Shown here one piece after another: positions 1-3,000 of a stretch of DNA of 4,102 nucleotides. The position numbers were made by a program. The stretch comes from a virus (Duplodnaviria > Heunggongvirae > Uroviricota > Caudoviricetes): IMG/VR virus record IMGVR_UViG_2703718820_000006; one strand, given 5' to 3'. The first letter of the stretch is position 1. Every line of letters begins with the position of its first letter.

Positions 1-3000
1 GACATATCTGACGAACCTGTATTTCAAAATTAAAGAAGACCGGCGTAAGGCGGCGCGGGGAGAGTAGACGATGAATAAACAATACGAACTGGTTGTTAAA
101 GGGATAAATATTTACCCGGATAAGATTACTGGGTATACGTCACTGTTGTTGCCAAATGTGGTGATTGATCTTGATCGTGTTGAAGGTGCCCCGCTGGAGT
201 TTTACGAAGCTGAGGCGAAAAAGAAGGCGAAGCAGTTTTTCATGGATATTGCTGCCGGGTTATGTGAAGGGAACGAACCGTTGCCGGAAAAGCGCCTCTG
301 TTCAGAAGAGCGGTATACCATACAAATTAACAATGCATATAACACGATACAGTCAGAAAAAGATGATATCGAATCACGCATTGAAAAACTGGAGAACAGC
401 GTCGTTGAACTGAATAAAAAACTGTCGGTGCAGATCCCTTCCGAAGGTGAAAAAAAACGCCGTGATGAGCAGTTCGCGGCGTTTTACGATTATTGCCGGA
501 AAGTGATGAGCAGAAATCTCGCAGAGTGTTTCCGTATTCAAAAAAACAGAGAGCGCTCTGCAAATAGTGAGATTCTGGATAATTTTTTAAAGGGGACGCA
601 TCTCGCCAGTGATTGTTTCATTGCTCATTCTTTTGGTGGCTTTCATGAGGCCATCAAACATGATGTTGAGAGAAGTCCAGGTATCCTCTGTTCCATTCCC
701 GTAAGCATCGAAATAGACACAAATACGATAACCGGTGAACTCGTTACCGCCGGAGTCGGTATATTCCGTCATGAGGGGAACGATGCCAAAGGTTCCTTTA
801 CAAAAATCGGGCCGTTCTTTCTGAAGGTAGAGCGATAGTTTGTTAAGTACCCATCCGACAGCTCGCTCATTTTGGTTTATTTTCGTATCGCGAAACAAAA
901 ATTCGAAGCGGCCAGATGACGCATGGGTGCAACCAAATACCGGGGCGTATTCATCAACCTTTGGTGTTCCTGAAAACATGCAGTCCGTGCTCTCGAATGC
1001 AGATGAATTGCTGTTGATCCACTTAACAAAAGAAAAAAAGGTCTGAATCGCTTGTCTGTCTGAATATTCAACAAAATCCTCAAGGTGTGTCTCGATCAGT
1101 TCCGGGTGTTTACGAAAGTCATAATATTGACCGGGACGATATTTATGAGTGGTTGTTTTATCCCATGGTTGTGCTCTGCGTCCCTGTAAACGGAGGTCTG
1201 CCGCTGGATAGATAAGCATAAGTAATCTCCTGGTGGAATGTAATCCACGATCATCCGGGGAAATTAAGAACCCGCCAGTGCCCACCACTGGTGGGGTGAA
1301 GGCTTAACATATCCAGGGATTCGGAACCGATAAATCCTGATAAATATCCATGAACACCAAAATCAAATACGGCCTGTCGGCTGCCGTTCTGGCGCTGATT
1401 GCCGCAGGGGCGCCTGCGCCTGATATTCTCGACCAGTTTCTGGATGAAAAAGAAGGTAACTACACCACGGCATACCGTGATGGTGCGGGTATCTGGACCA
1501 TCTGCCGGGGTGCCATCATGGTGGATGGTAAGCCTGTGATTCCTGGCATGAAGCTGTCGAAGGAAAAATGCGACCGGGTTAACGCTATCGAACGGGATAA
1601 GGCGCTGGCATGGGTGGCGAAAAACATCAGAGTGCCACTGACCGAACCTCAGAAAGCGGGGATCGCGTCATTCTGCCCTTACAACATTGGCCCCGGAAAG
1701 TGTTTCAGCTCAACGTTTTACCGGAAACTGAACGCCGGAGACCGTAAAGGCGCATGTGCTGAAATTCGTCGCTGGATATATGACGGTGGTCAGGACTGCC
1801 GTATCCGCTCAAATAATTGCTACGGTCAGGTATCCCGTCGCGACCAGGAGAGTGCGCTGGCATGCTGGGGTATCGACAGGTAGCAGAATATTTTGCTGAA
1901 AAATGACGTTTGCTCACGCGGACGGATAACACGAAATCCTGCGAACTGGCAAAATGCAAGTGAATAAAGTCAGGAAGATTGTTTCACGCAGAGGCACCGT
2001 AATGGTGTCTTTGTCATTTCTGCGCTTCGCACAAGCGTAAATAAACCAAAGAACCTTTCAGGATGAGCCCTGGTGGATAACCGGCAGTGGTCTGGTTAAC
2101 CCTCTTTGGGCTGGTTATTCCTGTGCGCAGGGTTCATCACTAAAAGGAAATAACCGATGAATATGATAACCGTGCCGTTTCACGGCGATTCTCTTTATGT
2201 GGTTAACCATAACGGCGAACCATACGTTCCCAAACCTGTCGTTGCGGGGATGGGGCTGGCCTGGCAATCACAGTTGGCTAAGTTAAGACAGCGTTTTGCG
2301 TCAACTATAACGGAAATCGTTATGGTTGCTGAGGACGGGAAACGACGCAATATGGTGTCCCTGCCACTTCGAAAACTTGCAGGCTGGTTACAAACCATCA
2401 ATCCCAACAAAGTAAAACCCGGAATCCGCGACAAGGTTATCCAGTATCAGGAAGAGTGCGACGATGTTCTCTATGAATACTGGACGAAGGGTTTTGTCGT
2501 TAATCCTCGTCAAATGAGCGTGATGGAAGAACTCAACCAGGCATGCGCTGACATGAAACGGGATAAAAACATTGCCAGTCTGTTTGGTACAGGGTTAAAC
2601 GAATGGAAACTGGTTAAAGCCGCGCATGTATCAAAAATTCGCACGTTGATAAACGAAGCGAATCTGCTGATTGGTTTTGTCCTGGCTGATACAGGCAAAG
2701 GAAAAATCACAAAGACGGATTGATGGAGTGGCGTCTAATGATATCAGGCAAACTCATAATGCTGGCGAAGGGCCTTTGTGTAATCGTCGGGATTTCATTT
2801 TCACTAATGCTGGTTGTTCTTTTTCCTTCCATAGCCTGGATGGCGTTGAGTTCGGCAGGGCTGGTGGGGTGACAGTGACTGATGACGACAATTTATTTAA
2901 ACAGATGAGTACTGAATTTATTCGGGCAACGGCATTTGCCATTCGCATTGTGGCAATTGCGGTTCTAATCCGGGAAATCCGCTGGTGGTGAAATGAATAA

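Follow-up and report, generated by a model that had tools for sequence, protein, structure and literature searches.

The question raised by this stretch of phage DNA is whether the Chi octamers it carries serve to recruit the host RecBCD enzyme to the end of the phage genome or are by-products of the genes in which they lie. The window, as we call the whole 4,102-nt stretch that was analyzed (IMG/VR record IMGVR_UViG_2703718820_000006), is identical to the complete 4102-bp draft contig LOIZ01000104.1 of assembly GCA_001608245.1. It is the lysis cassette of a lambdoid prophage of the Shiga toxin (Stx) type, starting in the holin gene and ending in the Rz spanin gene. Its plus strand holds three exact copies of Chi (GCTGGTGG) spanning 961 bp. 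A preliminary description had given the first two of these at the positions and on the strand where exact matching places them, and had counted two in all, overlooking the third.

2860-2867, plus strand: Chi 1, exact GCTGGTGG, in the final codons (G-L-V-G-stop) of a 50-codon open reading frame (ORF)
2981-2988, plus strand: Chi 2, exact GCTGGTGG, in the R-W-W codons closing a 28-codon ORF, a gene remnant
3813-3820, plus strand: Chi 3, exact GCTGGTGG, in the L-L-V-V codons 15-18 of Rz, in its N-terminal membrane segment

With moderate confidence, we read the three octamers as lambda-active Chi sites near the right-end cos of a lambdoid Stx-type prophage, where they would recruit RecBCD in a clustering pattern that has already been published. 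All three are spelled by ordinary coding and translation-start sequence, two of them where small ORFs end, shortly before the following gene starts, and the third by codons of the Rz membrane segment. Judged from their sequence and setting, they are genuine and correctly oriented Chi sites and are probably usable by RecBCD. Of 5426 complete E. coli genomes, 4958 have matches to parts of the window, which puts it in the DNA of hosts (E. coli and relatives) where RecBCD recognizes this octamer. Chi activity is enhanced by purines at nt 4-7 on the 3' side (Taylor et al. 2016, PMC5041463). At the three sites these positions read GACA, AATG and GTGG, with purines at three of the four in each and none among the best tetramers (AAAA, AAAG, AAGG and AAGA), which suggests that the sites may be of intermediate activity.

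The window being the whole contig, the rest of its own prophage is unreadable, and the position of the Chi sites relative to cos was taken from relatives. The longest contigs near-identical to the window reach about 17.5 kb. In two of these longer contigs (L016 and L017), Rz is followed by a gap of about 410 bp, then by a cos-type terminase, composed of a DUF1441 small subunit and a GpA large subunit, and then by the portal and head genes. The complete genome NZ_CP046539.1 (L001) carries the same Chi module, including its DNA adenine methyltransferase (Dam) gene, together with head genes of the lambda type. There, an exact lambda cosN (GGGCGGCGACCT) lies on the same strand as Chi, 195 bp before Nu1 and 941 bp to the right of the homologue of Chi 3. 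No match to lambda cosN within 2 mismatches was found in L016, the closest long relative of the window, and for this head type the position of cos is set by the gap between Rz and terminase only. The supposition of the preliminary description that the genome end lies to the right of the lysis genes is thus borne out in both kinds of relative. Its statement that Chi in this orientation is read by RecBCD entering from the right also agrees with the literature, in which RecBCD that enters at the right end of lambda responds to Chi on the top strand (Zheng, Casjens, Davidson, Amundsen and Smith 2025, PMC12315714). With terminase and cosN to their right, the Chi sites are therefore oriented so that RecBCD coming in at the free right end would meet their 3' side first. 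The three would lie about 0.4-2 kb inside that end on the top strand, as estimated for the window's own phage from the near-identical contigs.

Chi counts over whole elements come from four relatives:

L001 (NZ_CP046539.1): 12 plus-strand and 4 minus-strand Chi, 15 of the 16 to the left of cos and 1 in the head and tail genes (19 kb); RecE-like exonuclease only
L110, a relative with the Dam module: 6 plus-strand and 3 minus-strand Chi, 9 before the terminase and 0 in the 18 kb after it
L111 (Stx1_14040, the closest deposited phage): 8 plus-strand and 2 minus-strand Chi, 9 of the 10 before the terminase
L106 (NZ_CP166879.1, 3468291-3509431), an Stx1c 933W-like prophage: 3 plus-strand and 0 minus-strand Chi, the three of the module being the only Chi in 41 kb

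In these related prophages, almost all Chi lie in the interval from the replication genes to cos, and the head and tail genes have next to none. A concentration toward the right end, from ori to cos, was present in the relatives examined, and the window falls in that region; the orientation bias varies by lineage among the four. In L001, Chi ties as the commonest octamer, and no Gam was found among the annotated genes.

The same places recur among 80 IMG/VR contigs whose lysozyme is at least 89% identical to that of the window. In this set, the 2 kb that begin at the lysozyme start contain 137 Chi on the plus strand and 0 on the minus strand, and the following 8 kb contain 6, counts that do not represent independent events because the loci are homologous. 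Downstream sequence of at least 2 kb is available for 71 contigs, and 66 of these keep one cassette Chi or more; the main positions are nt 418 in the lysozyme gene, the ends of both small ORFs and the membrane segment of Rz. The lysozyme-gene Chi at nt 418, read as ATT CGC TGG TGG ATT with R-W-W, occurs in 72 of 80 relatives (L026-L105); the lysozyme gene of the window is without it and reads CGT CGC TGG ATA (1771-1778). As for the Dam module, the exact Dam protein occurs in 1213 blocks of a protein collection index, and its gene stands between those for lysozyme and Rz at each of eight places examined, with Chi 2 present in 8/8, Chi 1 in 7/8 and Chi 3 in 5/8. The carriers have the heads of 933W-like short-tailed Stx phages or lambda-like heads. 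At least 80% of positions 2720-3860 is present in only 3 of the 5426 complete E. coli genomes, and no deposited phage record holds that much of this segment.

The distribution seen in these relatives follows what has been reported for lambdoid phages in general. An analysis of 275 lambdoid phages and prophages of Escherichia and Salmonella (Bobay, Touchon and Rocha 2013, PMC3784561) found Chi over-represented and concentrated from the replication origin to cos. By that account, the over-representation belongs to phages without a RecBCD inhibitor, inhibitor-encoding phages avoid Chi, and recombinase-encoding phages without an inhibitor have Chi toward cos. Phage LLS, whose growth RecBCD enhances, carries 23 Chi, of which 20 have the active orientation and cluster at its right end; 62 more Enterobacteriales phages without a Rec module have at least 8 that are oriented likewise (Zheng et al. 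2025, PMC12315714). The same authors argued that neither codon usage nor G+C accounts for the pattern, and attributed exceptions to module shuffling.

Like LLS and the inhibitor-less classes with or without recombinase (Rec-/Inh- and Rec+Inh-), the window has the same octamer on the top strand in the lambda-active orientation. It also shares with the LLS class a low local G+C and an enrichment of near-Chi octamers, and its relatives concentrate Chi between the replication genes and cos with few in structural genes. Unlike that class, the window's phage is known from a 4.1-kb piece alone, so that the whole-element counts are those of relatives; its individual sites are polymorphic among those relatives; and the three-site module also occurs in a prophage that encodes the inhibitor GamL, as the only Chi in 41 kb. 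A second likeness is to the engineered or mutational Chi of lambda red gam (the chi-cos system; Kobayashi, Stahl, as cited in Zheng et al. 2025), which are top-strand Chi to the left of cos. L001, with its exact lambda cosN, has the same arrangement. Wild-type lambda has no Chi, and the lambda red gam sites, according to that citation, were shown to be hotspots by crosses, whereas those of the window are known from sequence alone. With the Chi of the E. coli chromosome, the window shares the identical octamer, a preference for the leading or sense strand and the preferred codons CTG, GTG and TGG. It differs in density, three sites in 961 bp being about 14 times the average of 1 per 4.6 kb, and in the DNA end concerned, which comes from phage packaging and not from breakage of a replication fork.

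That the sites act soon after injection, as the preliminary description proposed, is at best weakly supported; Chi is established to act at the time of cos cutting and late replication, and only where Gam does not inhibit RecBCD. In established lambda biology, as cited in PMC12315714, terminase remains on the left end after it has cut cos and leaves the right end free. For the window's phage, the proposed sequence would begin with such a cut, or with exposure of a linear rolling-circle tail, the left end being held by terminase. The free right end would load RecBCD, which would unwind leftwards through Rz, Dam and the small ORFs. Each Chi would offer an independent chance of recognition by RecC, followed by a RecB nick a few nt to the 3' side and RecA loading, and three successive sites would raise the cumulative chance of capture near the end. 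The end could then recombine with another phage copy and feed concatemer formation rather than further unwinding and degradation. As this mechanism needs active RecBCD, it applies to carriers without an inhibitor, such as those of the L001 type, or to the time before Gam is made.

The genes around the sites were assigned from an ORF listing and Pfam searches (which found Phage_lysozyme, P22_AR_N, a D12 methyltransferase and Rz):

71-838: DUF1327 ORF, a 255-codon frame (ORF listing/Pfam)
587-1219, minus strand: opposite-strand ORF of 210 codons, no Pfam or PHROG match
1350-1883, plus strand: lysozyme (endolysin) gene (Pfam)
2157-2723: antirepressor-like (Ant-like) gene, P22_AR_N/ORF11CD3 (Pfam)
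2720-2872, plus strand: hydrophobic 50-codon ORF, phrog_4906 of unknown function, a hypothetical protein in RefSeq relatives
2873-3775, plus strand: Dam cassette, an insertion relative to Dam-less relatives, containing Chi 2
2905-2991, plus strand: 28-codon ORF, a partial pseudogene in RefSeq relatives
2993-3760, plus strand: D12-class DNA adenine methyltransferase (Dam) gene (Pfam)
3769-4102, plus strand: Rz spanin gene (Pfam), continuing past the contig end

Dam is a moron inserted between the small ORFs and Rz, and the 28-codon ORF is the remaining C-terminal part of a small gene found ahead of Rz in other lysis cassettes. A 5-bp direct repeat, GGTGA, borders the Dam cassette at 2868-2872 and 3771-3775. 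In Dam-less cassettes, the stop of the 50-codon ORF overlaps the GTG start of Rz as GTGA (GCTGGTGGGGTGAGCATAAA), so that the insertion of Dam duplicated, or reused, this start/stop junction; Chi 1 in these relatives lies directly upstream of the Rz GTG, overlapping it. The neighborhood of Chi 2 (CGCTGGTGGTGAAATGAA) precedes Rz, not Dam, in 17 other loci. In the window, 4 nt separate Chi 2 from the Dam ATG (2993), which puts it in the Shine-Dalgarno position. To describe it as overlapping the Dam ribosome-binding region was thus a fair reading, with the stop codon of the 28-codon ORF (TGA, 2989-2991) in between. That stop lies 1 nt ahead of the ATG, a spacing which suggests that Dam may be translationally coupled to the upstream ORF remnant. 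A duplication origin of the Chi 1 and Chi 2 pair was considered and rejected, because their flanks are alike only in the octamer and the TGA that follows it.

Farther to the left, the opposite-strand ORF at 587-1219 overlaps the 3' part of the DUF1327 frame and lies between the holin/DUF1327 genes and the lysozyme gene. Its exact protein is found in 1817 index blocks, its position is constant across Stx-type and other lambdoid prophages, and it is an uncharacterized moron. The contig probably breaks where it does because lysis genes of lambdoid prophages are repeated within a genome; in the genomes of relatives, the matching places per genome have a median of 2 and reach 14.

Beyond the exact copies, the window contains many near-Chi sequences. 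The heptamer CTGGTGG starts at 1230, 1288, 2070, 2861, 2982 and 3814 on the plus strand and occupies 3205-3211 on the minus strand. The preliminary description had placed the copies at 1230, 2070 and 3205 (minus strand) correctly, and its copy at 1289-1295 truly lies at 1288-1294. Counting every octamer with at most one mismatch to Chi gives 12, against an expectation of 2.9; 9 of the 12 are on the plus strand. Those that match at seven of eight positions are as follows:

1229-1236, plus strand: near-Chi CCTGGTGG, 7/8 match
1287-1294, plus strand: near-Chi ACTGGTGG, 7/8 match
2069-2076, plus strand: near-Chi CCTGGTGG, 7/8 match
2809-2816, 3545-3552 and 4039-4046, plus strand: further near-Chi octamers, 7/8 match
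3205-3212, 4067-4074 and 4094-4101, minus strand: further near-Chi octamers, 7/8 match

The near-Chi ACTGGTGG is overlapped by an inverted repeat at 1281-1295 (7-bp arms with a 1-nt spacer, CCCACCA C TGGTGGG) located in the intergenic space from which the opposite-strand ORF and the lysozyme gene diverge; this could be a protein-binding palindrome. An Rfam scan of the window returned no RNA family, and a promoter and terminator scan gave nothing near the Chi sites beyond shuffle expectation.

How far three sites exceed chance depends on what is held constant. Dinucleotide shuffles predict 0.13 Chi on both strands together, with three or more in 0 of 200 shuffles, and a trinucleotide Markov model predicts 0.235 on the plus strand. 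Synonymous-codon shuffles that keep all encoded proteins raise the expectation to 0.63 on the plus strand and give 0 on the minus strand. The E. coli genome has 1008 Chi in 4.6 Mb, or 1 per 4.6 kb (Zheng et al. 2025, PMC12315714), and at this density three or more in a fixed span of 961 bp have a probability of 0.0013. Given one Chi, the probability of two more on the same strand within 953 bp is estimated at about 0.011, so that about 10 such clusters per genome would be expected by chance, again as an estimate. Maximal-order and order 3-4 Markov expectations derived from the window alone were not used, since the three sites dominate its k-mer counts and make such expectations circular. Local G+C is low (44.8%), and base composition is therefore not the explanation of the sites. 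Altogether, the Chi enrichment is real yet moderate and depends on the null model.

Several observations weigh against the reading of the three octamers as right-end Chi sites that recruit RecBCD. The excess is modest, with a probability of three or more of 0.011 under the codon shuffles and of 0.06 in 4.1 kb at E. coli Chi density. The shared orientation is not evidence in its own right, because the coding strand alone accounts for it: the encoded proteins by themselves give the polarity, as the lack of minus-strand Chi in the codon shuffles indicates. The individual sites vary among aligned loci. Chi 1 is intact in 23 of 68, with the variants GCTGCTGG, GTTGCTGG and ACTGGTGG; Chi 2 in 20 of 51, with GTTGGTGG in 31; and Chi 3 in 63 of 93, with GCTGGTAG in 27. 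Additionally, when octamers were compared by distinct haplotypes, 43%-74% of neighboring octamers were conserved at least as well as the Chi octamers. L106 has the same module and encodes a lambda-type exonuclease, RecT and GamL, so RecBCD should be inhibited in its lytic growth. Finally, 4.1 kb is all that can be read of the window's own phage, and whether a Rec module or Gam is encoded could be read in relatives only. The idea that each site is individually maintained was dropped, the Chi octamers being conserved no better than their neighbors, and selection at these particular sites is not demonstrated. For such phages, it has been suggested that individual Chi sites come and go (Zheng et al. 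2025, PMC12315714).

The strongest rival explanation, to which we give a minor but appreciable chance, is that the octamers are a by-product of coding and translation. R-W-W-stop, G-L-V-G-stop and L-L-V-V written in preferred E. coli codons, together with G-rich sequence resembling a Shine-Dalgarno site, would then spell Chi with no selection for recognition by RecBCD. The codon shuffles speak for it in that they yield 0.63 Chi on the plus strand and 0 on the minus strand, and the site at 2981 re-forms in 26% of them because Trp has a single codon. In relatives, moreover, the Chi site of each small ORF immediately precedes the start codon of Rz or of Dam; the sense strand is enriched in near-Chi octamers as well; the sites are polymorphic (GCTGCTGG, GTTGGTGG, GCTGGTAG) and no better conserved than their surroundings; and preferred codons have been argued to explain the frequency of Chi in E. 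coli (Subramaniam and Smith, bioRxiv 10.1101/2021.07.08.451572). Three sites nevertheless exceed the codon-aware expectation (P=0.011), and the head and tail genes of the same prophages, which are on the same strand and extend over 18-19 kb each, hold 0-1 Chi. Lambda and LLS, with nearly identical codon usage, have 0 and 23 Chi, respectively (Zheng et al. 2025, PMC12315714).

A different possibility arises from L106, which departs from the avoidance of Chi reported for phages with an inhibitor. There is a slim chance that even Gam-encoding lambdoid phages keep a Chi cluster near cos, or that Chi-containing junctions seed the exchange of lysis-cassette modules. If the cluster were kept despite the inhibitor, it might protect the right end, injected first, before Gam is made, or a prophage whose cos is cut in situ; retention of Chi in Gam phages would contradict the reported avoidance. 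Most simply, L106 gained the module by recombination as cargo, in line with the shuffling model of Zheng et al. The module moves between phage lineages, Gam-encoding ones included, in which it is probably silent cargo.

Quite improbable, in our assessment, is that the orientation reflects the polarity of the host chromosome, with prophage Chi on the leading strand stopping RecBCD during the repair of broken forks and serving, or being tolerated by, the chromosome. The Chi-bearing strand appears to be leading in both complete genomes examined. The record of NZ_CP166879.1 begins at dnaA and has the prophage on its minus strand, 3.49 Mb along a length of 5.94 Mb. In NZ_CP046539.1, the prophage adjoins mtfA and tRNA-Ser in an order inverted relative to K-12, and its replichore is presumably the one that the K-12 map would give. 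It has also been suggested that Chi may help prophages fit the chromosome (Bobay et al. 2013, PMC3784561). However, host polarity predicts Chi spread throughout the prophage, whereas Chi is confined to the region before cos and L106 is without it in its other ~40 kb, and the direction in which the late operon runs is a confounder of leading-strand orientation.

Least probable, and weakly grounded, is a role of short Chi-containing gene-boundary junctions as exchange points for modules such as the Dam cassette: the cassette does begin 5 bp past Chi 1 with GGTGA repeats on both sides, GCTGGTGGTGAAATGAA is common to the Dam start of the window and the Rz start of 17 other loci, and many megablast matches to Rz start at 3811, 2 bp ahead of Chi 3, but established RecBCD biology has Chi stimulate exchange over kilobases 5' of the octamer and not at it, mosaic joints at gene boundaries are usual in lambdoid phages with or without Chi, and the break at 3811 may merely reflect upstream mismatches, the upstream Rz codons being similar yet diverged.

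The principle of Chi near cos, its orientation rule and the clustering at the right end are already published (Bobay et al. 2013; Zheng et al. 2025), and this cluster is therefore an added example rather than a new idea. Its mildly interesting point is that the module is also found in Gam-encoding phages otherwise without Chi. If the sites are used, the Stx-type prophage would recruit the host RecBCD-RecA pathway at its packaging end, which would bear on concatemer formation, on phage yield and on the frequent recombination among Stx and other lambdoid prophages.

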